Origin: Gemmata obscuriglobus | GTDB lineage: Bacteria; Planctomycetota; Planctomycetia; Gemmatales; Gemmataceae | Direction: 5' to 3' | Assembly: GCF_008065095.1 (NCBI RefSeq) | Contig: NZ_CP042911.1 | Span: 3,270,001 to 3,302,000, forward strand | Length of the DNA: 32,000 nucleotides | Shown: positions 2,620 to 26,659 of the stretch, piece by piece | Position numbering within the stretch: position 1 is the stretch's first letter | How the letters are laid out: each line of letters opens with the position of its first letter | The notes under the pieces: model-generated | The model's database searches: none | Told to the model about the DNA's origin: nothing | The model's input: the letters and a program-made list of their open reading frames with translations, nothing else | Translations under genes and position numbers: made by a program

Positions 2620-4107
2620 TCACAGCCGCCCGCCGACCGGTTCCACCGCGAACGTAAACGCCTCGCACGACACGACCCCTGGTAGCGGCAATATGGCCCG
2701 GTCGAGACAGGGGCGGTCGTCGATCAGGAACTTCGTGTCCGGCACGCGCACGCTTAACCCCTCGCGCGAGCGATAAATCAGCACGGGCGCGTCAACCGCC
2801 AGCGGAATGTGTGCGTCGGGCTCCGGACCGAGAATGAGTTCGTTCCCCATCAGCAGCACCGCGTCAACCGGGGCCTGCAACCGGTGCCCACTCGTCACTT
2901 CCAGTTTCGCAGACGAACTGACCTCCACCGGCTTGTGGAACAGGAACTGGCAACTCGTGCCGAGGGTCACGCGATCGCCGGGCGCGAGCACCGCCCGTTT
3001 AGTATCTGCGCCGTTGACGCGCAGTGAGCGACCGGACTCGATCACGTAGCCTTCGGCATCGCGGGTGAGTTCGGCGTGGGTACGTGACACCTCTGCGTAG
3101 AGCGGCACGTCCACCGGGCCGTCGGCTGTAGCCTGTCCGAAGGTGACCCGGTTCGACAGGCACACCAGATACCCGCCCACCCCGTCCACCCATAGCAGGA
3201 ACCGCTTCGGTAGCGGGGCACCTGCGCTCGAGGACTCTTCCGCAAGAGCCGTTCCGGCTACACGAGCGATAGGGCGACCGCTCCCAGTTGCTGGCGGATG
3301 TAACGACTCGACCCGTGTAGCTCCTGCCCGGCCCGACGTACTCCGCGCGATCGGCCGCATGGTCGGCAGTTCCGGCACCGGCATCGGAACGGCAACGCTC
3401 ACCGTCTCGGGTGCCGCGGCGGCCCAGGCCCGTCCGCGAACCGCTTTCGCCTCCCGGTGGTCCGGAGCTACGGCCAGCACCTCCGCCGCGAACGTTACGG
3501 CTTCGGCCCATTTTTTCGCGTCGGCCGCGTCCATGAGGCGTGAGACCGCGTCACGGAACTGCACGTGCCGCGCCTCGACCGCGTCTCGGAACCGCTCCAA
3601 CCCGGTCGGTGGACACGGCAGCTTCGGGGCGATGCGGTCCAATTCCGCCAAGGCACGAAGGAACTCGCCGCGGTCCGCCAGTTCAGATGCGTGAACCCAG
3701 TCTTGGGCCGCGACTTCGAGCCGTTCGAGATCGGGGTGCCGCACCCCGCGGTCGCGAATCCGGGTGATCTGGTCGAGCGTGTCGATGGGGCGGCCGGCTT
3801 CGAGCATCGCCTTTGCCTGAACCACTGACAGTTTGGAAAGCGTGTACCGCAAGTCGGTAACCGCTTTTTCCCCGGTGTTGAGCGTCTCGGCAGCTAGCAG
3901 GTCGCGCCACGCCGCATCGGGGTTGTGCTGGTCGAGTGCCTTGGCCGCCCGCGTCAGGTAAGACCGCACGACTTCGCGGGCGAGCCGAACCACCTTGCGG
4001 TGCCCGTCGGCGAGATGGGGTTCGAGCAACCGGTGCGCGTCTTCAGGGCGGCCGGCACCGACCGCCTCTTGCGTCTGACGCAGTACCAACCACAGTGACG
4101 CGGGCAT
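2620..4107 (-). CDS. FHA domain-containing protein with N-terminal helical region
   Basis: The C-terminal half has an FHA-like segment (VTFGQATADGPVDVPLYAEVSRTHAELTRDAEGYVIESGRSLRVNGADTKRAVLAPGDRVTLG). I chose the start at ATG 4105-4107 (MPASLWLVLRQ...) because third-position GC drops upstream. In-frame alternatives exist at 4419 (strong SD) and 4848. Confidence 0.7.
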   Translation of the reverse strand: MPASLWLVLRQTQEAVGAGRPEDAHRLLEPHLADGHRKVVRLAREVVRSYLTRAAKALDQHNPDAAWRDLLAAETLNTGEKAVTDLRYTLSKLSVVQAKAMLEAGRPIDTLDQITRIRDRGVRHPDLERLEVAAQDWVHASELADRGEFLRALAELDRIAPKLPCPPTGLERFRDAVEARHVQFRDAVSRLMDAADAKKWAEAVTFAAEVLAVAPDHREAKAVRGRAWAAAAPETVSVAVPMPVPELPTMRPIARSTSGRAGATRVESLHPPATGSGRPIARVAGTALAEESSSAGAPLPKRFLLWVDGVGGYLVCLSNRVTFGQATADGPVDVPLYAEVSRTHAELTRDAEGYVIESGRSLRVNGADTKRAVLAPGDRVTLGTSCQFLFHKPVEVSSSAKLEVTSGHRLQAPVDAVLLMGNELILGPEPDAHIPLAVDAPVLIYRSREGLSVRVPDTKFLIDDRPCLDRAILPLPGVVSCEAFTFAVEPVGGRL

Positions 4108-4194
4108 AGGGTGACGGAGTGGGTGGCGGAGACCGTGCGCATAGTGTACCAGATTCGAATCGATTGAAACCGACCAACCTCCGACACAGGTGCG

Positions 4195-4217
4195 GTGCCG
4201 GCGTCGGACGCCGGCAC
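4195..4217. repeat. 23-bp perfect palindrome GTGCCGGCGTC-G-GACGCCGGCAC
   Basis: Read directly: 11-nt arms are exactly complementary around one central base. It lies about 90 bp upstream of the preferred FHA start. Confidence 0.8.
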
Positions 4218-4645
4218 GTTCGCGCCTGCCCGGTTCTCTCTGCCCTGCCTGTCTCCCACCACTGATGCATGTCGGAGTGAGCGGAAACGGCGTGGTGGTG
4301 TGCGATTTTGGCACGCCGCTTCCCGACAGATGGCACGTACCGCCCGGCGCAGTAAAGCCGGCGCGGGAAACTGCTTTTCCGCTCCTTGGCGCCGCCGATC
4401 GCACTCGCGCCTCGGGCATTTTTCCCCCTCCTTTTTCACTCGCTGCACTTCCCGATGTCCGAATCATGCCTTCTGGGGCAGTTGGCAGCGGTGCTCCCGT
4501 CCGACGGTTGGCGTCGCAGGCGCGTGGTAAATATGCCGCAAGAGTCGCCATATCAAGATGTTGCGCCACGATATCTGGGAGCCGTTGGGATCTCGGGCGA
4601 CTCGCCCGACGATTGTAACTGGGGCTCAAAGCAGTGGATTCGTGG

Positions 4646-4722
4646 GTAGCGATCGCCCAGCGAATGGGTAGTCCGATGCCCGTTAACTGCCAGCGAATGT
4701 CCTGTCGGCCACCCAGCGGATC
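4646..4722. repeat. array of about 7 degenerate 11-bp tandem repeats (consensus about CCAGCGAATNN / CCAGTCCGNNT)
   Basis: Phased 11-mers from 4646: gtagcgatcgc / ccagcgaatgg / gtagtccgatg / cccgttaactg / ccagcgaatgt / cctgtcggcca / cccagcggatc. Homologous to the array at 14041-14106. Confidence 0.65.
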
Positions 4723-5075
4723 GCCCACATGCCATAGGAGAGCCCGTTGCACCGCCGGGCCGGTCAAGAACAGTGGGACCGCCCGAGTGGTTCTCGGACG
4801 CGGCTCTTGCGGTAGGCCGGCAAACGGTTGGAATTTCTCGTGCATCAAACTACTGATGGCAGCGCGGGTACACCCGAGTTAGGCCGTGTACCACGATGGG
4901 TGCCACAGGTACGACCGCACTCGTCGCGATCAGCCCTTCAGCCGCTCGACCCATGATTACCGGCACGGCACGTGCATGGGCCACCAACTCACTGTCAGCT
5001 TACGGCGAGTGGTTGTCACCAGAGGGTTCCGGCCGATGTTCCCGGCCGGGACCGATTCGTGCCGCAAAGACCGAG

Positions 5076-6143
5076 ATGATGATGCGAAGAAAGTGGCTTC
5101 TGGTCGCTCTTGCGCTCGCGGGCTGTGGCGCCGCGTACCTCGGCTGGAAGGCGCTCCGACCCAGGCCGTTACCGGAGGGTTTCGCCAGCAGCAACGGCCG
5201 TATTGAGGCGGTCGAGATCGACGTAGCCGCGAAGACCGCTGGTCGGCTCAAAGAGGTACTGGTAAACGAAGGCGATTTTGTCACCGCCGGCCAGGTGCTC
5301 GCCCGGATGGACACCGAGGTGCTCGCGGCGCAACTTCGTGAGGCCGAAGCGGACTCGCGCAAGGCAAAGAGCGCGGTCGACACCGCCAAGAGCACTGTCG
5401 TACAGCGGGAGAGCGAGAAAGCGGCCGGGCTGTCGGTCGTCGCCCAGCGCGAGGCCGAATTCGACGGGGCGAAACGGACCCGCACGCGGGCGGAGGCCAT
5501 GTCTGCCCAGGGCGTCGGTTCGGCCGAAGTGCTCGACGGCGCCCGCGTCCAGTTCTTCAGCTCGGAAGCGGCCGTCAAAGCCGCTCGGGCGAACGTCGCT
5601 GCCGCGGACGCGGCCATCGCCACGGCCCGGTCGCAGGTGATTCAGGCCGAGGCGACGGTGGACGCGGCCAAATCCCGGATCGAGCGGCTTCAGGCGGACA
5701 TCGATGACAGCACGCTTCGCGCCCCGCGCGACGGCCGGGTGCAGTACCGGGTCGCTCAACCCGGTGAGGTGCTCGCGGCCGGCGGCAAGGTGCTGAACAT
5801 GGTCGACCTCGGCGACGTGTACATGACGTTCTTCCTACCGACCGCGGACGCCGGCCGGGCGCGAATGGGGACCGAGGTTCACATCGTTCTCGACGCGGCC
5901 CCGCAGTTCGTTATCCCGGCCCGCGTCTCATACGTCGCGGACGTGGCCCAGTTCACCCCGAAGACGGTCGAGACGGCGCAGGAGCGCCAGAAGCTGATGT
6001 TCCGCATCAAGGCGCGAATCGATCCGGACCTGCTCAAGAAGCACATCAACCGCGTCAAGACCGGGTTGCCGGGGGTAGCCTACGCCCAACTCGATCCCGG
6101 GGCCGAATGGCCCGCGGACATCCGGGTGAGGTTGCCGGAATGA
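5076..6143 (+). CDS. HlyD-family membrane fusion (periplasmic adaptor) protein, YhiI/YbhG-like
   Basis: Start [17 protein letters not shown] (TM/signal anchor), a long coiled-coil, and the C-terminal motif [27 protein letters not shown] typical of the YbhG/YhiI group. Its stop overlaps the next start (ATGA at 6140-6143). Confidence 0.85.
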
Positions 6144-8965: not shown

Positions 8966-10087
8966 ATGCGCGCCGGGACCGTCTGGCACTTGGGCGTCAA
9001 GGAGCTGTGGAGCCTGGCCCGCGACCCGATGCTGCTCGGGCTCATCGCCTTCAGCTTCACGGTGTCGGTCTACGCGGGGGCGACGGCCCAGCCGGAGACG
9101 CTCAACAAGGCGCCGATCGCGGTGGTGGACTACGACCGGTCGCCGCTGTCCGAGCGCATCACCGCTGCGTTCTACCCGCCGCAGTTCCTGCCGCCGGCCC
9201 GGATCACCCCGGACGAAATGGATGCCCGCATGGACGCCGGCCGGGACACGTTCGCGCTGGTGGTCCCGCCCGACTTCCAGCGCGACGTGCTCGCCGGGCG
9301 GCGGCCGGCGGTCCAGCTCAACGTCGACGCGACGCGCATGAGCCAGGCGTACACCGGCAGCGGGTACGTCGAGACGATCACCAGCGGGGAGGTCCGTGCG
9401 TTCGCCGACCGGTACCGAGCGAACCCGGCCCCGCCGGTGGACATGGCCGTGCGGGCGCGGTTCAACCCGGAGCTGAACAAGTCGTGGTTCGGAGCGGTCG
9501 TGAAGCTGATCGACAACGTGAACCTGCTGGCGATCGCGCTGGCCGGGGCCGCCCTGATCCGGGAGCGGGAGCGGGGCACGATCGAGCACCTGCTGGTGAT
9601 GCCGGTGACCCCGTTCGAGATCATGACCGGCAAGGTGTGGTCGATGGGACTGGTGGTGCTGTTCGCGTGCGCACTGTCGCTGCGGGTCGTTGTGCAGGGG
9701 GCGCTTGGGGTGCCGGTCGGGGGCTCGCGGGCACTGTTCCTCTGCGGCGTCGCGCTGCACCTGTTTGCCGCCACGTCGATCGGCATCTTCATGGGCACGT
9801 TCGCCCGCTCGATGCCGCAGTTCGGGCTGCTGCTGATGATGGTGGTGCTGCCGCTCCAGATGTTGTCCGGCGGGGTGACGCCCCGCGAGAGCATGCCCGG
9901 GTGGGTGCAAACGGTGATGCTGGCGGCCCCCACCACACACTTCGTGGCCCTGTCCCAGGGCATCCTCTACCGCGGCGCGGGGCTGTCGGTCGTGTGGCCG
10001 CAGTTCCTCGCGCTCGCACTGATCGGGACGACGTTCTTTGGCGTGACGCTGGCGCGGTTCCGTAAGGTCATCGGCACGATGGCTTGA
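8966..10087 (+). CDS. ABC-2 type transporter permease (YhhJ/YbhR-like)
   Basis: ATG lies 3 nt after the preceding stop. One N-terminal TM helix, a large loop and then a cluster of C-terminal TM helices, paralogous to the C-terminal domain of the preceding gene. Confidence 0.85.
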   Translation: MRAGTVWHLGVKELWSLARDPMLLGLIAFSFTVSVYAGATAQPETLNKAPIAVVDYDRSPLSERITAAFYPPQFLPPARITPDEMDARMDAGRDTFALVVPPDFQRDVLAGRRPAVQLNVDATRMSQAYTGSGYVETITSGEVRAFADRYRANPAPPVDMAVRARFNPELNKSWFGAVVKLIDNVNLLAIALAGAALIRERERGTIEHLLVMPVTPFEIMTGKVWSMGLVVLFACALSLRVVVQGALGVPVGGSRALFLCGVALHLFAATSIGIFMGTFARSMPQFGLLLMMVVLPLQMLSGGVTPRESMPGWVQTVMLAAPTTHFVALSQGILYRGAGLSVVWPQFLALALIGTTFFGVTLARFRKVIGTMA

Positions 10088-10366
10088 TCCCGGGTCCGAG
10101 GGCGCCCTGACCGTCACTGACCACCGGTTCGGTTCGAAGGCCGTGGCCTCAACTTCGGATCGGTGCCCCTCGGACAGTATCCGCACCTCATCGGCGCGGT
10201 CGCCGGAACGCAGGACCCGCGGGACGGGCTGCGCGGCCCGCCGAAGATGCCTTGAACGAACGGTTGAATTAACGCGGGCGCGCCGGCCCCCTGTTCGCTG
10301 AGCCGTGCCGAGTGGCAAGGTCAAACCATACGCGGCCGAGCACGCGCGTCAGGGTGTCGCGCCGCG

Positions 10367-13414: not shown

Positions 13415-13816
13415 ATGTCAGCCGACGCGCGTGAGGGTCCCGTCAAGCCACTGCGCGTTCTGGTGGTGGATGACGACGCCGATACGCTCGACTCGCAGCT
13501 CGACCTGCTCGGGCTGTGCGGGTTCGCGGTCGGCACTGCGGCTGATGGCGAGGAGGCACTTCGGACCGTTTTGGCCGATCGGCCCGATGTGGTTGTGACG
13601 GATTTGCGGATGCCGCGGTGCTCCGGGAGCGAACTGGCGCGCCGGGTGTCCGCGGCGGGGCTCTCGCCGCGCCCGTTTCTGGTGGCGGCGACCGGGTGCC
13701 AAGGCACCATGCTCCGGGAGGCCGAACAGGCCGGGTTCGATCTGATACTGATGAAGCCCGTCGAACCGGCGGTGCTGGTCGGGTTGCTCCGCCGGATCGA
13801 GCGCGCCCTTCACTAA
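13415..13816 (+). CDS. single-domain response regulator (CheY-like receiver)
   Basis: LRVLVVDDDADT, phospho-acceptor context VVVTDLRMP and a C-terminal LMKP. AAGGAG lies 7 nt upstream of the ATG. Confidence 0.85.
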   Translation: MSADAREGPVKPLRVLVVDDDADTLDSQLDLLGLCGFAVGTAADGEEALRTVLADRPDVVVTDLRMPRCSGSELARRVSAAGLSPRPFLVAATGCQGTMLREAEQAGFDLILMKPVEPAVLVGLLRRIERALH

Positions 13817-14040
13817 CCGGCTTTGCTGTCGCGGCTTTTTGGTCGGCACATCGAGCGTCCTGTCCGAATCGCACTTTCAGAAACCAAAACCCATCGGCTG
13901 TCTCTGACGCCCGGTTCCCGTCAGAGGCGGACGATTTTACCCGCGTCAATTGCTGCAAGCGATTTGGTGATAGTGCTTTGCGACTCTATTATGCCGGATC
14001 GCCTTGGGGTGGCGGTTCGGAGAAATCGCGTGATTCGGTG

Positions 14041-14106
14041 GTAGCGATGTACCAGCGAATCGCCAGTCCGGGTACAGCAGATGTCCAGTCGGCGACCAGT
14101 CCGAGT
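14041..14106. repeat. array of six degenerate 11-bp tandem repeats
   Basis: Exactly phased 11-mers: gtagcgatgta / ccagcgaatcg / ccagtccgggt / acagcagatgt / ccagtcggcga / ccagtccgagt. The region 14032-14070 matches 4637-4675 at 31 of 39 ungapped positions (hand count). Confidence 0.7.
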
Positions 14107-14349
14107 GCCACCGACGCCGCACCGACTTTCCCATACTCGCAGCCCTGTGATGTGAGCCACGTGCCCAATTCATCTGAAAAGCGACACGCGCCGCGACTGA
14201 AGCGGGGCGAAGCCGAGATCCAAATTCCGCCGGTTGGAAACGGCCCAGATTGAATCCTCGCGCCCGCTACTGTCCAGATGGCACCCGCGTTGACGAGCGA
14301 TTGCGTACCGGGTATGCGGGCGGCCATCGTACAACCCGAGGGGGGCCGC

Positions 14350-18232: not shown

Positions 18233-19387
18233 TCAGACTTCCCAAACGCAGCGCACAAGTGAACACTGAGAACATAAAACGAGTGCCATTAACCGCCAGG
18301 ACGCGGTTAATGGCACTCGTTTTGACACTTTAGCAGCGAGAGTGCAGGGATTGGGGTTCCTTGCGTGGAACCGGCCGATTTTTGAGCCATCGCGCCGAAG
18401 ACCGCGCCCGATGGAGGCCGTGAAGGGTTTGGGTGCGTCGGGTGGCGTCAGGCGGCGGTGCTCGAAAAGCTCGGCCACATCCGCCTTTTGGCGCGTCGTC
18501 ATCCGTCGCGCCGGGGCGGCGTCCTGTTTGCGGGGGCGACCACGCTTGCGCGTGCGGATCGGCGCCAGGACGTGCTTACGCACGTGAGTCAACGCACGCG
18601 GGACGGCCTGATTGATCTCCTTGAGGATATGGAACACGCAGAGCGGGTGCGGCACGCCCGGCCAGCGTTGCGAAAGGACGGCCGGGTACCGCGACGAGCC
18701 ATCGGTGGTAATGCCCTGCACACGCTTGCCACGGGCGCCCAGTTGGCCCTTAACGTCCGCCCGAAAGATCCGGACATCGGCGTGGGTCGGGTCGTGTTCG
18801 AGGACACAACAGGCCAGGCGGTTGTACCGGCGGTTGTCCACAACTGAAAGGATGCAGAAGGGGCCGTCATCGACTTCGTCGATGGCCACGTAACCGGAGA
18901 ACTGCGCCAGGGCGTCGTCGAGGTAGGTGGTCCGACGTGTCGCCACCTTTTTCCCCCTTCGCCACGATCCAGAACCGGGTCGTGGCGAAGGGGACAAGAC
19001 CCGGTGATCCCGCCACAGATTCCAACTGGCGGTTTGATAGGGGAGTCCGTCCTCGCACACCAGGCGCACGGCCAGATCCTGGACGCGCCGGGTGTACAGG
19101 CACTTGGGGCGCGCCAGGTCCGTGAGGTCCACGGCGAAGCACCGGCCACAGGAGAGGCACCGGTGTCTGGAGAAGGTCACGACCAGATCGACGGGGCGTC
19201 CGGTGCGTGGGTCGCCCAGATCGTGCAACGTGCGGGTATCGGTGGTGCAACGGCCGGCCGCGTGGTTGCAACGCGGGCACCGACGCGAACGGACGTTACG
19301 TGTGCGCCGGTGGATGTGCGGTTGGGGGAGATCTTCGACCTGGGTAATCCCCTCAGTGGGGTCCGGAGTGTATTCGCCGGGAGCCAT
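18233..19387 (-). pseudogene. ISL3-like zinc-finger/DDE transposase, probably C-terminally deleted; ORF reads out through the IS end
   Basis: CPRCNH...RHRCLSCGRCF (zf-ISL3-like), YVAIDEVDDGPFCILSVVDN and GITTDGSSRYP...CVFHILKE (the first two acidic-residue motifs). There is no stop inside the element, so the last 34 codons are flanking DNA including the 18286-18333 hairpin. Confidence 0.55.
18286..18333. repeat. perfect 21-bp-stem palindromic element (loop 6 nt)
   Basis: aaaacgagtgccattaaccgc (18286-18306) is the exact reverse complement of gcggttaatggcactcgtttt (18313-18333). It directly abuts the IS end at 18334. Confidence 0.85.
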
Positions 19388-20177: not shown

Positions 20178-20250
20178 TGGAGCGAATGAGAGTCGAACTC
20201 ACGGCCTCTTCGTTGCGAACGAAGCGCTCTACCAACTGAGCTATCGCCCC
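20178..20250 (-). tRNA. tRNA-Ala (anticodon CGC)
   Basis: Hand-folded cloverleaf: acceptor GGGGCGA/TCGCTCC with the G3:U70 alanine identity pair, D arm GCTC-AGTTGGTA-GAGC, anticodon arm CTTCG-TTCGCAA-CGAAG, T arm GTGAG-TTCGACT-CTCAT. 73 nt; CCA not encoded. Confidence 0.95.
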
Positions 20251-20364: not shown

Positions 20365-21331
20365 GGTGGTGTCCTACTTTTGTTGCACGGCCGGGAACGC
20401 CAGCCACTCTTGCAACGACTACACGTGATCGGTGAGTCCGGCCGCCAGCGCCGGGGTTCTCTCGCGCCAGCGGCGGTCCGCACCCTTGGCGCGCAGGGTG
20501 CGGACGGGCCAGCGAAAGTAGCGGGACGCGGTCGCAGCCCGGTGCGTGTTCCAGTCCTTGGAGAACGCATACGTCTTGCGGGCCTTGCGGCTGCACCGGT
20601 TCCGATCGGTCCCGTTGTGCCGCCCCACGAAGCACGTGTCACGACCGTGCTCACGACCGAGGCGGCCAGCCCGGCGGTCACCGCGGCCGCGGTCCCGAGC
20701 ACCACCCGGGTACTCACGGACATGACCCGATTGCTCTTCCGCTCCTTATGTACGGTCGCGCACATGACCGATGCCGGGAGTACCGAGCCTTGTGCGGGCG
20801 CCGCGGCACCGGTCCTCCGGGGCACCGTTCTTCTCCTCGCGGGCCACGAAGCTCCACTCCTCAGCGAGCTGGAGTTCGTTGGTCCGGGGGGGAAAGGGCC
20901 ACCAACTCGTCGTGGAGTTGCTGGGCCTGGTGCCCGGTCTGACGGATGTACCGGGTGACCGTGTCCCGATGCACCCCGACCAACCGGGCGGTCTTGCGGG
21001 TGCCCGCCCCCTCGGCCACGTGGGCCAGCACCGCGGTCACCGTTTGGGCCGACAGCCGGGTCCCATACAAGGGCGTGCCCTTGCGCTCGGAGAACCGGGC
21101 CTGGCACGTGGAGCACCGCAGCACCCGGGTGCGGTTCGGTCCGTACCGGGCCGGCACCGTCAGGTTACCGTGCCCCCGCTTCCCGTGGTCCGGGCAATCC
21201 GCATTCCGGCAGCAGAACCGACTCAGGTCGTCCATCACCGATCTCGACCCGCGCGAGGGAAAACACCACCGAACGGTGTAAACTCCTTGCCACGTATCAG
21301 CAGCCGCATGCAAGACGAACAGGACACCACC
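20365..21331. mobile_element. IS1-family element, degenerate
   Basis: Terminal inverted repeats ggtggtgtcctacttttgttgca (20365-20387) versus the reverse complement of tgcaagacgaacaggacaccacc (21309-21331): 18 of 23 match and the outer 11 are perfect. GGTG-type ends as in IS1. I saw no clear target duplication. Confidence 0.65.
20419..21235 (-). pseudogene. IS1-family transposase, frameshifted and internally deleted
   Basis: InsA-like zinc finger/HTH (MDDLSRFCCRNADCPDHGKRGHGNL..LRCSTCQARFSERKGTPLYG..HRDTVTRY). A frame break occurs at a C7 run (about 20886-20892), then TNELQLAEEWSFVAREEKN and a stop. The C-terminal piece is in yet another frame (RKTYAFSKDWNTHRAA...TPALAAGLTDHV). Confidence 0.65.
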
Positions 21332-21540: not shown

Positions 21541-21662
21541 TATTTCCCTGGGACCGCGGACGTCCCGTCCGCCGGTTGGGAGGTGGGGCCGTGTTGCGGA
21601 CCTTCAGCAAGCGTCCTCATCCCTCGGGCAGCGAACAGAACGTCCGCGGTCCCAGAGAAATA
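21541..21662. repeat. 122-bp inverted-repeat element (22-nt arms, 78-nt spacer)
   Basis: tatttccctgggaccgcggacg (21541-21562) versus cgtccgcggtcccagagaaata (21641-21662): 21 of 22 complementary. Partial pairing continues inward. Confidence 0.7.
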
Positions 21663-21797: not shown

Positions 21798-22583
21798 TCA
21801 GTACGGAGCGCGAATGAGCGCCCCGAGTAACGCCCCCAGTCGGTCAACGGCCAGGGCGGCGTTCGTCAACACCTCGGCGTGATCGAGCGCTGTCCCTCCG
21901 ATCCCGGCGGCCTTGTTCGTGACGCACGAAATTGCCGCCACTTCGAGCCCGCGTGCGGCTGCCGCTTCGGCTTCCAGCGCTGTGGACATGCCCACGGCGT
22001 CGGCCCCGCAAGCGGCGAGCGCGCGGATCTCCGCGGGGGTCTCGTAGCTCGGGCCGGTCAGCGCTGCGTAGAGCCCCGCGAGCAGTTCGCGTCCGCCGGC
22101 GCGCTCGTGCGCCCGCATGACCTCAATGAGTCGCGCGGCGTACGGGCGCACCGATCCGTCGCCGGCCGCCAGGCCGCGCCACGCGGCGGGGCCGAGGAGC
22201 TTGAGGTGTCCTCGAATCGCCATCAGCGCACCAGGCGACAGAGCCGGGTTGATGCCGCCCGCGGCGTTCGTGAGGACGAGGCGCCGCGCGCCGAGTTCGG
22301 CCGCGGTGCGCACCGTGCCGGTCACGACCTCCCAGGGGTGGCCCTCGTAGAAATGCACCCGGCCTCGAACGAGCAGGGCCGGGACGCCGCCCCACTCGCC
22401 GACCGCCAGCGTGCCGCCGTGGCCGTGAACCGACGGCGGAACCAGCCCCGGGACGGCGCCGAACGGCACCGCTGCGCGTTCCACGAACGCGGCGGCGGCG
22501 CCGCCCAATCCCGACCCAAGCACGACGGCCGCCCGCGGCGCGAGCGCCGCAGCGGTACGGGCGAACGCGGCGAACGCGGCCAT
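21798..22583 (-). CDS. purine nucleoside phosphorylase (PNP/MTAP family), complete copy 2
   Basis: 261 aa: MAAFAAFARTAAALAPRAAVVLGSGLGG..., HFYEGH, LTNAAGGINP, GPSYETPAE, GADAVGMST, ISCVTNKAAG. The start overlaps the upstream stop (TGATG). Confidence 0.9.
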   Translation of the reverse strand: MAAFAAFARTAAALAPRAAVVLGSGLGGAAAAFVERAAVPFGAVPGLVPPSVHGHGGTLAVGEWGGVPALLVRGRVHFYEGHPWEVVTGTVRTAAELGARRLVLTNAAGGINPALSPGALMAIRGHLKLLGPAAWRGLAAGDGSVRPYAARLIEVMRAHERAGGRELLAGLYAALTGPSYETPAEIRALAACGADAVGMSTALEAEAAAARGLEVAAISCVTNKAAGIGGTALDHAEVLTNAALAVDRLGALLGALIRAPY

Positions 22584-26593: not shown

Positions 26594-26659
26594 CACCCGC
26601 CCGGTGACGCATGCGGTTCGACCAGTCACGGTCGAACCGCATGCGTCACCGGGCGGGTG
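26594..26659. repeat. perfect 29-bp-stem hairpin/palindrome with 8-nt loop, intergenic inside the ABC cluster
   Basis: cacccgcccggtgacgcatgcggttcgac (26594-26622) is the exact reverse complement of gtcgaaccgcatgcgtcaccgggcgggtg (26631-26659). Verified base by base. Confidence 0.9.

Follow-up and report, generated by a model that had tools for sequence, protein, structure and literature searches.

To our knowledge, the long spacers in the very large genomes of planctomycetes such as Gemmata have hardly been characterised, and regulatory or repeat elements have seldom been described in them. One of these spacers raises the question of whether a run of 11-base units in it is a true repeat array and, if so, whether it serves the adjoining efflux operon or belongs to a different kind of element. 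The window, which is the whole stretch of DNA that was analysed, covers 32 kb of the 9.0-Mb chromosome of Gemmata obscuriglobus (CP025958.1). An earlier note, made from the sequence alone, had described a phased array in this window that is related to a second array and resembles an operator or a set of iterons. The analysis defined, on firm statistical ground, an element family for which coordinates, a unit motif and models are at hand and whose members can be counted genome-wide.

Two homologous arrays of 11-base units in the window

Spacer A (4108-5075) is 968 bp long with a GC content of 0.629 compared to 0.673 for the window, which agrees with its earlier description as a long spacer of lower GC content; spacer B, which harbors the second site, has 533 bp and a GC content of 0.606. 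The proposed homology between positions 4637-4675 (site A) and 14032-14070 (site B) was confirmed, as 31 of 39 positions are identical without gaps, while the best matches in 200 trials with Markov-simulated spacers had a mean of 23.5 and a maximum of 27. The second matching block that had been noticed between the arrays was also recovered (4697-4713 versus 14081-14097, 15/17 identical). Exactly two occurrences of the 21-nt core GGTAGCGATnnnCCAGCGAAT were detected in the 32 kb window versus 0.02 expected, and the core GGTAGCGATNNNCCAGCGAAT still occurs just twice when three mismatches are permitted. Both window copies are direct, not inverted, relative to each other. Two 10-mers common to both spacers (4327/14275 and 4456/13861) were at chance level according to their BLAST E-value; the pair 4456/13861 was later placed inside the homologous block U described below.

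Site A starts with the 5' inverted arm GATTCGTGGG (4637..4646, plus strand), which was read directly from the sequence. This arm repeats the CCAGCGAATC unit imperfectly and in inverted orientation, and an imperfect palindrome is formed around TAGCGAT. The core GGTAGCGATcgcCCAGCGAAT, which covers units 1 and 2 (4645..4665, plus strand), has two exact matches in the window and is exact at four loci of G. algarum JC673. Unit parsing and a phased PWM resolved array A (4646..4735, plus strand) into eight units of 11-12 nt, namely GTAGCGATCGC, CCAGCGAATGG, GTAGTCCGATG, CCCGTTAACTG, CCAGCGAATGT, CCTGTCGGCCAC, CCAGCGGATCGC and CCACATGCCAT, and the nhmmer envelope for this array spans 4633-4729. By the same methods, array B (14033..14118, plus strand) was found to consist of the 5' arm GATTCGG followed by the seven units GTAGCGATGTA, CCAGCGAATCG, CCAGTCCGGGT, ACAGCAGATGT, CCAGTCGGCGA, CCAGTCCGAGTG and CCACCGACGCC. 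The earlier division into 11-mers agrees with this independently derived parsing. The units start with CCAGY or GTAGY and the information of the unit PWM is concentrated in positions 1-5. The A residue of the YAG anchor is found at 4648, 4659, 4670, (4681), 4692, (4703) and 4715 in site A, with degenerate units given in brackets, and at 14043, 14054, 14065, 14076, 14087 and 14098 in site B.

No 11-bp array was reported by TRF at site A. This program is blind to the site because the units are too degenerate, and autocorrelation and a phased PWM scan were therefore employed. Site A alone showed a lag-11 autocorrelation of 0.37-0.38 (p ~0.19-0.22 when corrected for the lags tried), which is marginal, whereas the claim of a phased 11-bp array is supported by site B alone (lag 11 z = 4.3, corrected p = 0.001) and by six paralogous copies, which comprise the two window sites and the four G. 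algarum loci with an exact core. For these six copies, z values of 7.2, 5.1 and 7.0 were obtained at lags 11, 22 and 33, with a 95th percentile of 3.0 for the shuffle maxima. The 66 nt downstream of the searched core alone gave a lag-11 z of 5.9, a value reached in 0/1000 shuffles, and the phased PWM scan scored array A with 42 bits and array B with 44 bits, where the null did not exceed 15.7 in 32 kb. At site A, some seven degenerate units of 11 bases form a genuine array, which is roughly in phase with the DNA helix. Unit order and CCAG anchors are common to all copies, also outside the searched pattern, and length differences among copies are indels of 11-12 nt, i.e. whole units. A length of 10 or 12 nt was seen in approximately 10/45 units; this is close to the neutral-indel expectation and gives no sign of selection on the phase.

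An interspersed intergenic element in Gemmata

An exact-core scan of a genome collection, in whose output G. obscuriglobus including both window sites is absent, yielded 35 matches, of which 27 were chance or coding matches in unrelated phyla. The matches L013, L031 and L034 from Planctomycetota MAGs are homologous to each other and lack an array, as does the match L033. Four copies were detected in G. algarum (JC673), in mutually unrelated intergenic contexts, versus an expectation of ~3e-4 per 10-Mb genome by our estimate; the conservation of the core among these copies is an ascertainment effect, since the exact core was used for the search. Homology between copies extends over 90 to about 350 nt and reaches, in several copies, ~250 nt upstream of the array into a CU-rich block. 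Leave-one-out nhmmer searches with the upstream 230 columns recovered site A (E = 9e-11) and the G. algarum copies L008 (1e-13), L024 (9e-9) and L014 (7e-4). This homology ~250 nt beyond the array identifies the array as one module of an interspersed repeat of ~320-350 bp.

The upstream part of the repeat at site A is the CU-rich block U (GCATTTTTCCCCCTCCTTTTTCACTCGCTGCACTTCC...GTCCGAATC, 4406..4469, plus strand), which was delineated by alignments and leave-one-out nhmmer. With block U only, the left-out window copy was recovered at 4410-4468 (E = 2.5e-4), and block U together with the middle segment gave E = 9.4e-11 (4411-4590). The middle segment (4470..4636, plus strand) shows patchy conservation with L008 and L024 and was by itself recovered at 4511-4590 with E = 0.003. 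At site B, the stretch GGCTTTTTGGTCGGCAC...GTCCGAATCGC (13812..13875, plus strand) may be a weak equivalent of block U; it can be aligned and is tentative, because the leave-one-out search misses it. Downstream of array A, a 3' hairpin remnant CCCGTTGCACCGCCGGG (4743..4759, plus strand) is visible in the alignment. The full hairpin module CTGTAAC-N4-GTTACAGCGCC directly follows two G. algarum arrays, and among 62 loci it is intact only in L008 (3876-3893) and L014 (3954-3971). Judged from these alignments, the element appears to be composed of a CU-rich block and a middle segment, an array of six to eight degenerate 11-bp units and a short hairpin that terminates some of the copies. The array represents the downstream half of a ~350-base element scattered in the intergenic DNA of G. 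obscuriglobus and its closest relatives, with an apparent range limited to the lineage of Gemmata obscuriglobus, G. algarum and Gemmata sp. JC717. Its copies are homologous, non-coding and without a conserved RNA fold, and they reside in unrelated intergenic contexts in either orientation.

Conservation among related Gemmataceae, proposed as a check in the earlier note, was observed over a short distance only. Both G. algarum JC673 and Gemmata sp. JC717 have retained site B at the orthologous position, while no array was found in more distant Gemmataceae upstream of the relatives of HlyD (79-84% amino acid identity), MoxR (90-92%) and the lipoprotein (56%). Identity between G. obscuriglobus and G. 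algarum amounts to 92% for the array, 85% for the whole spacer and 84-89% for fourfold-degenerate sites, and the excess is not significant. No further copies were found in ~46 kb of the G. obscuriglobus genome, including the 14 kb that flank the window. A metagenome scan with a degenerate core gave eight matches, none with an array, and a viral scan gave one chance match in AT-rich phage DNA. BLAST searches against a plasmid collection (72,556 plasmids) and a phage collection revealed no similarity, and no relevant paper on the motif was found in the literature. Together with the negative Rfam search detailed below, these results uphold the earlier statement that no described motif matches.

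Terminal inverted repeats or target-site duplications were not evident in alignments that were read by eye and in which the element boundaries are fuzzy, and no clean empty site was found, more distant Gemmataceae being too diverged to show one. The transposase gene examined for sampling the genome is single-copy. Several identities were rejected for the repeat. A template or variable repeat of a diversity-generating retroelement is contradicted by mismatches that are not adenine-specific and by the absence of a reverse transcriptase among the Pfam-scanned window ORFs. A Tn7-like or Mu-like transposon end with multiple transposase sites is contradicted by the direct, not inverted, arrangement of the two window copies, by homology that reaches ~250 nt past the outer edge of the array and by the lack of an adjoining transposase. 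Likewise, attL/attR sites of an island around the 9.4-kb segment from HlyD to the response regulator are at odds with only ~80% identity, with no integrase seen and with the same synteny in G. algarum.

Coding, transcript, operator and repeat explanations

All frames examined were rejected as coding. The most elaborate coding explanation, a minus-strand Trp-containing 11-residue repeat (...ADWxxxxxxLAIRWxIAT(H/T)ES...) in a small protein or in an N-terminal extension of the FHA protein (742-aa ORF), would account for a minus-strand frame that is open in several copies and reads IRWxIAT, for the codon-aligned variable triplet of the core and for W units every 33 nt. It is nevertheless hardly credible, as stop-to-stop ORFs in the best frame across copies range from 45 to 753 codons with no common start or end, the GACTGG motif is read in two frames inside one copy, the signal at lag 33 is no stronger than that at lags 11 and 22, and the 11-12-nt indels between copies shift the frame. 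At site B, a 1-nt indel separates the species inside the sole long ORF, and their alignment in the frame of this ORF contains one synonymous and four non-synonymous changes; a conserved ORF under purifying selection was not found, and the earlier view that a coding repeat is improbable was sustained. A frame-specific GC pattern like that of the FHA gene is absent from the array region, where ORFs had no Pfam matches; the FHA gene itself shows its GC3 signal up to ~4107, where the annotated product of 495 aa also starts. An RNA function was judged quite unlikely. The element could be transcribed and act as an sRNA or a 3'-UTR-derived RNA, whose CCUCC block would pair with ribosome-binding sites and whose CCAG/CUGG motifs would titrate an RNA-binding protein. 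Such a role is compatible with a pyrimidine-rich block U that is predicted to be unstructured, with a hairpin at the end of two copies, with weak -10-like hexamers 47-71 nt upstream of two arrays (conserved at site B) and with the start of three copies just past the stop of a co-oriented gene (the response regulator at site B, the epimerase terminator at L014 and a 633-aa ORF at L024). The other three copies have no co-oriented upstream gene. The covariance analysis suggested earlier for an RNA structure yielded neither covariation nor a common fold: compensatory changes were not seen, and the sole shared pairing in the RNAalifold prediction is the 5' arm hairpin of roughly 10 bp, with an unfavourable covariation term of +0.3 to +0.5. 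Whole-array single-sequence fold z-scores ranged from -2.0 to +1.4 on both strands. Neither spacer had an Rfam match at the gathering score or at E <= 1; a tRNA elsewhere was the only Rfam match in the window. A scan for consensus (sigma-70) promoters was negative in both spacers, intrinsic terminators were not found in spacer B and a single terminator-like site in spacer A does not exceed the shuffles, and the terminal hairpin lacks a U-tract and has a loop that is flipped between copies. As the RNA-structure test remained without support, a reading at the DNA level stays open.

The genomic contexts bear on whether this DNA is a dedicated operator or a repeat without cellular function. The spacers of the six copies are divergent (three), tandem (two) or convergent (one, the 3'-3' spacer of L024), and both orientations occur. 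Neighboring genes in the window encode FHA, HlyD, ABC transporter, P-type ATPase, response regulator and lipoprotein products, whereas the G. algarum copies adjoin aspartate kinase/PQQ propeller genes, two MoxR operons and an ATP-grasp gene. Five of the six copies are located in spacers that must hold a promoter, at 150-500 nt from start codons and distal to conserved proximal blocks. An operator dedicated to the adjacent genes, i.e. the HlyD/RbbA/ABC-2 efflux operon and the gene of the lipoprotein, and recognised by a regulator of the OmpR/PhoB or ribbon-helix-helix type would explain the 11-bp direct repeats, whose units alternate between two flavours like those of PhoP, GlnR and ArcA sites, the location of both window copies upstream of a gene with which they are co-oriented, and the two-component pair that flanks site B. 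The array has the direct-repeat spacing of an OmpR/PhoB-type operator (10-11 bp centre-to-centre, at least two units) as well as the fixed-period tandem direct repeats of iterons and parC. We nevertheless consider the dedicated operator very improbable. The window arrays lie 240-350 nt from start codons, and the site A array is distal to an HlyD-proximal block that is conserved in relatives without any array; HlyD and MoxR relatives without an array retain the promoter-proximal block common to the array-bearing loci. The response regulator beside site B (13415-13816) has a receiver domain only, without an output or DNA-binding domain. What the copies share is not the motif alone with non-homologous flanks, as in a regulon, since unit order and up to ~350 nt of flank homology are common to them; this homology over 90-350 nt in unrelated contexts indicates that they spread by copying and are not independent regulon sites. 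The absence of the array upstream of orthologous HlyD, MoxR and lipoprotein genes and the convergent copy further argue against a dedicated efflux-operon operator, and no rep or par genes were found among the Pfam-scanned genes around the copies, which are chromosomal and without plasmid or phage similarity. The operator or iteron tied to the HlyD/RbbA operon, as put forward in the earlier note, is not supported by these observations. The same contexts make a selfish or decaying repeat without cellular function possible, if somewhat doubtful. A non-autonomous mobile element or its relic, with a slippage-prone array and a coincidental helical period, would account for homologous copies in unrelated spacers with random-looking spacer types (3/2/1) and orientations, which are limited to one lineage and located in extra spacer DNA, as in the epimerase-MoxR spacer (152 nt in a relative versus ~656 nt in G. 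algarum). It also fits the array-less relatives, the length differences by whole units and the lack of a significant conservation excess over neutral sites. On the other hand, terminal inverted repeats, target-site duplications or a partner transposase were not identified, copy number seems low with four exact-core copies in G. algarum, and site B has been stable since the split of G. obscuriglobus and G. algarum. Furthermore, copies with an identity of otherwise ~55-70% have kept the CCAG anchors and the 5' palindromic core, with the core part being ascertained.

The explanation that we favor, with a confidence that falls just short of even, is that the array is a module of a lineage-restricted intergenic repeat of ~320-350 bp and may serve as a platform for protein binding on one face. 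In an ancestral element, the array could have arisen by tandem duplication of an 11-bp unit or of a 22/33-bp super-unit; the element would then have been copied to new sites, and slippage would later have altered the unit number, as suggested by the 11-12-nt indels that distinguish the copies. By analogy only, the array might present one face of double-stranded DNA to a sequence-specific protein, which would nucleate on the best-conserved 5' part, where inverted and direct CCAGCGAATC flank TAGCGAT, and would from there occupy the weaker CCAGY boxes cooperatively in a head-to-tail manner. Candidate binders are a host regulator, an architectural protein or a factor that once mobilised the element. 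Any effect on neighbors, for example the HlyD/RbbA operon, would follow locally from the place at which a copy inserted, and the 11-bp period may simply reflect the size of the unit that was duplicated by chance. A bolder version, in which a Gemmata-specific protein reads helically phased CCAGY boxes and the platform is carried beside new genes on a ~350-bp mobile module, is considered unlikely; as a variant of it, the same module might be transcribed and contribute an anti-Shine-Dalgarno-like CU-rich arm.

Should a protein bind to the array, this would be a case in which a repeat disperses an operator whose multiple sites are already assembled. Under the bolder version, each insertion would plant a ready-made array near an efflux pump, MoxR operons, a lipoprotein and other genes; in a planctomycete, regulation or nucleoid architecture would in this way be rewired through a repeat. 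Without binding, the element would still be of use for tracing recent genome dynamics in the clade of G. obscuriglobus and G. algarum. In either case, caution is advised against taking such arrays as operators of whichever operon adjoins them.

Comparison with known 11-bp arrays and modular repeats

Arrays of 11-bp units to which proteins bind on DNA are known from several bacterial systems. Operators of Streptomyces PhoP (PHO boxes) contain up to six 11-nt direct repeat units (PMC2275107) and E. coli ArcA sites are built from two to five direct repeats with 11-bp centre-to-centre spacing (PMC3798270). Like these OmpR/PhoB-family sites, the Gemmata array is composed of 11-bp direct repeats, with few conserved bases and a variable spacer in each unit, and conserved core units stand beside degenerate ones in arrays of two to six or more; the degenerate units of PhoP and ArcA sites are thought to be filled by cooperative binding (PMC2275107, PMC3798270). 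In contrast to PhoP and ArcA regulon sites, which have independent origins, the Gemmata copies are homologous over 90-350 nt and copy-spread, one of them lies between convergent genes, and no cognate DNA-binding regulator is known or found among the genes nearby. We know of no box sequence of an OmpR/PhoB-family regulator that matches CCAGY. The parC site of plasmid R1 likewise consists of tandem 11-bp direct repeats, arranged as two sets of five iterons bound by ParR, with one ParR dimer per repeat binding cooperatively on one stretch of DNA (PMC2241845). Unlike parC and plasmid iterons, the Gemmata copies are singly dispersed on a chromosome of 9 Mb, their units show much greater degeneracy, the neighboring genes that were scanned against Pfam contain neither par nor rep families, and they have no similarity to the 72,556 plasmids.

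Among interspersed repeats, REP and BIME elements share with the Gemmata element a short intergenic format with imperfect palindromes; they are sometimes protein-binding sites, and REP sequences carry a GTAG tetranucleotide beside the palindrome, which is a likeness to the Gemmata array. Unlike REPs, which are 20-40-nt palindromes, usually in inverted pairs and linked to RAYT genes, the body of the Gemmata element is a direct-repeat array without a palindromic partner, and none of the loci examined showed a RAYT gene. From the pneumococcal BOX element (boxA-boxB(n)-boxC), in which boxB has ~45 nt, the Gemmata element is set apart by its 11-nt unit, the lack of a stable predicted RNA fold and of visible terminal inverted repeats or target-site duplications, an apparently low copy number, and its occurrence in a different phylum without any sequence relationship. 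The architecture is nevertheless alike, since BOX is a modular interspersed repeat with an internal tandem array (PMC3049150), and both are small non-coding intergenic repeats whose central tandem module varies in number and which are found in many unrelated contexts in either orientation (PMC3049150).

Homology and 11-nt phasing of the arrays

Array A (approximately 4637-4735) is located in a 968-bp spacer between a divergent FHA-domain gene on the minus strand (annotated product 495 aa, end of the frame-specific GC signal at approximately 4107) and the gene for an HlyD-type adaptor, which starts at 5076 and is followed by those for a fused double-ATPase/ABC-2 protein and an ABC-2 permease. 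The spacer that holds array B (14033-14118) measures 533 bp and is bounded by a receiver-only response regulator (13415-13816) and a 122-aa ORF, for which direct reading indicated a lipoprotein-like signal sequence. The G. obscuriglobus sequence CP025958.1 (8,998,893 bp) carries this response regulator with identical surrounding DNA. The GC content of both spacers (0.63 for A and 0.61 for B) is lower than that of the window (0.673). A consensus promoter was detected in neither spacer; terminator-like sites were absent from spacer B, and the only one in spacer A represents no excess over its shuffles.

Conserved blocks were observed in these spacers. The block ..TTACCGGCACG..CAC..GCATG.. (approximately 4950-4985; approximately 3820-3850 in locus L052 and 3555-3590 in L062) is found upstream of HlyD across Gemmataceae, approximately 100-130 nt ahead of the start codon. 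The efflux operon probably has its real promoter or leader in this block, which is independent of the array. The stretch TTTGCGACTCTATTATGCCGG (13978-14003) includes a -10-like TATTAT 47 nt upstream of array B. It is unchanged between G. obscuriglobus and the syntenic locus of G. algarum JC673 and shows one change in that of Gemmata sp. JC717 (9630-9655 in both), although the DNA immediately upstream has diverged.

The earlier note had claimed that the two arrays are homologous, and its ungapped match of 31 of 39 positions proved exact (simulated spacers gave a mean of 23.5 and a maximum of 27), while the second matching block is identical at 15 of 17 positions. With up to three mismatches allowed, the 21-nt core GGTAGCGATNNNCCAGCGAAT (4645-4665 in array A) occurs exactly twice in the window, where 0.02 occurrences are expected. 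The 11-nt phasing, which had been read from array A, was not convincing at that site alone: Tandem Repeats Finder (TRF) found nothing there and the lag-11 autocorrelation was equalled by approximately one in five shuffles, all lags considered. It did hold at site B alone (corrected p = 0.001) and over six paralogous copies, namely the two window arrays and four from G. algarum, with z = 7.2 at lag 11, 5.1 at lag 22 and 7.0 at lag 33. Restriction to the 66 nt downstream of the searched core gave z = 5.9, which was reached in 0/1000 shuffles. The copies parse into 6-8 units of 11 nt, sometimes 10 or 12, each starting with CCAG or GTAG, and the information of the unit matrix resides in positions 1-5 (1.8 bits for A at position 3). 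In a phased scan every array reached 40-45 bits, where the null gave at most 15.7 per 32 kb; these scores are not independent, since the matrix was trained on the same arrays. The scan detected no arrays in the window beyond those known. The observation of an 11-bp array is confirmed and extended.

A lineage-restricted modular interspersed repeat

Scanning the genome collection for the exact core yielded 35 matches, none of them from G. obscuriglobus, so that this count excludes the source genome. Four are true relatives, all from G. algarum JC673; the others were rejected as coding or chance matches. The four copies are found in unrelated contexts and in varying orientation to the neighbouring genes: a divergent spacer between an aspartate kinase and a PQQ beta-propeller gene (L008), the spacer of an NAD-epimerase and a MoxR-DUF58 operon (L014), a 1.5-kb divergent spacer adjoining a second MoxR operon (L035) and a convergent spacer flanked on both sides by 3' ends, those of an ATP-grasp gene and of a DAHP-synthase operon (L024). 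Neither the window nor 14 kb of flanking genome contained further copies.

The region from HlyD to the lipoprotein is syntenic in G. algarum JC673 and Gemmata sp. JC717, and array B occupies the orthologous position there, one base of its core being changed (GCGAT to GCGGT). In both strains an extra YHYH-domain gene (region 4134-5765 of their loci) separates the ABC-2 permease from the P-type ATPase cluster; this gene is absent from G. obscuriglobus (window approximately 10090-10360).

Inspection of the 260 nt upstream of each array revealed a common CU-rich block, GCATTTTTCCCCCTCC..TTTTC..CTCGCGGCACTTCC..GTCCGAATC, and a patchy common middle segment. Leave-one-out nhmmer on these upstream columns recovered L008 (E = 1e-13), array A (9e-11), L024 (9e-9) and L014 (7e-4), L035 weakly and array B not at all. 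A perfect hairpin, CTGTAAC-N4-GTTACAG, follows directly 3' of two G. algarum arrays (L008 3876-3893, L014 3954-3971) and nowhere else among the 62 loci examined; it has no U-tract, and the palindrome is flipped between the two copies, one loop reading CCCC and the other GGGG. A remnant of the hairpin is found at 4743-4759 of site A. The upstream homology and this 3' module therefore define a modular element of approximately 320-350 bp, a new lineage-restricted interspersed repeat whose 3' half is the degenerate 11-bp tandem array.

The CU-rich block (window 4406-4469; L008 3545-3608; L024 4199-4258; L014 3633-3698) is located approximately 170-240 nt upstream of the arrays and is predicted to be unstructured. 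It holds an anti-Shine-Dalgarno-like CCTCC/CACCTC motif, and its opposite strand has a strong AAGGAGG plus ATG with no conserved ORF behind it.

In more distant Gemmataceae the array is absent at relatives of HlyD (79-84% amino-acid identity), of the lipoprotein (56%) and of MoxR (90-92%). The HlyD and MoxR relatives retain a promoter-proximal block in common with the array-bearing loci, and the epimerase-MoxR spacer of one syntenic relative measures 152 nt versus approximately 656 nt in G. algarum. This places the arrays in extra spacer DNA that is specific to the lineage. The block CGCGACACTTTCCGAAAA..GTTTAATCC..TTGCGTC ahead of MoxR (L014 4075-4150; approximately 130-190 nt ahead of the gene in L055-L060) is conserved in all relatives and is probably the MoxR promoter region.

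Other repeats and mobile genes

IS-type genes occur on the minus strand at 633-1979, 2179-2466, 18233-19132 and 20861-21235 (a DDE_Tnp_1 transposase with an adjoining fragment, a MULE/ISL3-like transposase that is single-copy in the genome collection, and a small HTH protein); none adjoins an array in the window. Inverted repeats comprise a 31-nt pair (18324-18354/19436-19466), a perfect 30-nt palindrome with a 6-nt loop (26594-26659) and an imperfect 51-nt repeat (21541-21662). A 300-bp direct duplicate with 94% identity (5-304 and 21955-22254) has its second copy within a PNP_UDP_1 phosphorylase gene, and a paralogous phosphorylase gene lies left of the window in an older assembly. A minus-strand tRNA gene (70 bits) was detected at 20178-20250.

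Functional reading of the element

The array was regarded as unlikely to be coding in the earlier note, and this view was borne out. On the minus strand, the frame that looks most like protein (..LAIRWxIAT..) lacks a common start or stop, one DNA motif falls in different frames inside a single copy, 11-12-nt indels separate the copies and a 1-nt species indel lies within the sole long ORF at site B. The periodicity is as strong at lags 11 and 22 as at lag 33, and the species differ by one synonymous and four non-synonymous array changes. A structured RNA, the alternative proposed for a covariance check, found no support: there was no Rfam match, fold z-scores on both strands lay between -2.0 and +1.4, and the sole consensus pairing, a 10-bp hairpin of the inverted arm GATTCGgTGG with the unit CCAGCGAATC, shows arm changes that are not compensated in the opposite arm. 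Action at the RNA level through the CU-rich arm is a serious rival. A plasmid or phage origin was rejected, as no matches were obtained.

Identity between G. obscuriglobus and G. algarum is 92% in the array, 85% over the whole spacer and 84-89% at fourfold-degenerate sites; because the species are this close, the pair gives no demonstrable constraint on the array. Another serious rival is that the element is a purely selfish or decaying repeat.

The interpretation given in the earlier note is supported in part. The copy-paste origin of the array, the variety of its contexts, one of them a convergent spacer, and its absence at related promoters speak against a dedicated operator for the efflux operon. 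Since coding and RNA-fold signals are absent, the most economical functional reading is that the array may act at the DNA level as a one-face platform for protein binding, a mechanism we infer. Such a platform would resemble the 11-bp direct-repeat binding arrays of the OmpR/PhoB family regulators PhoP of Streptomyces (PMC2275107) and ArcA (PMC3798270) and of ParR on R1 parC (PMC2241845), in which a variable spacer likewise accompanies a few conserved bases. For a modular repeat whose internal array varies, as in the Gemmata element, the pneumococcal BOX elements (PMC3049150) provide a precedent.
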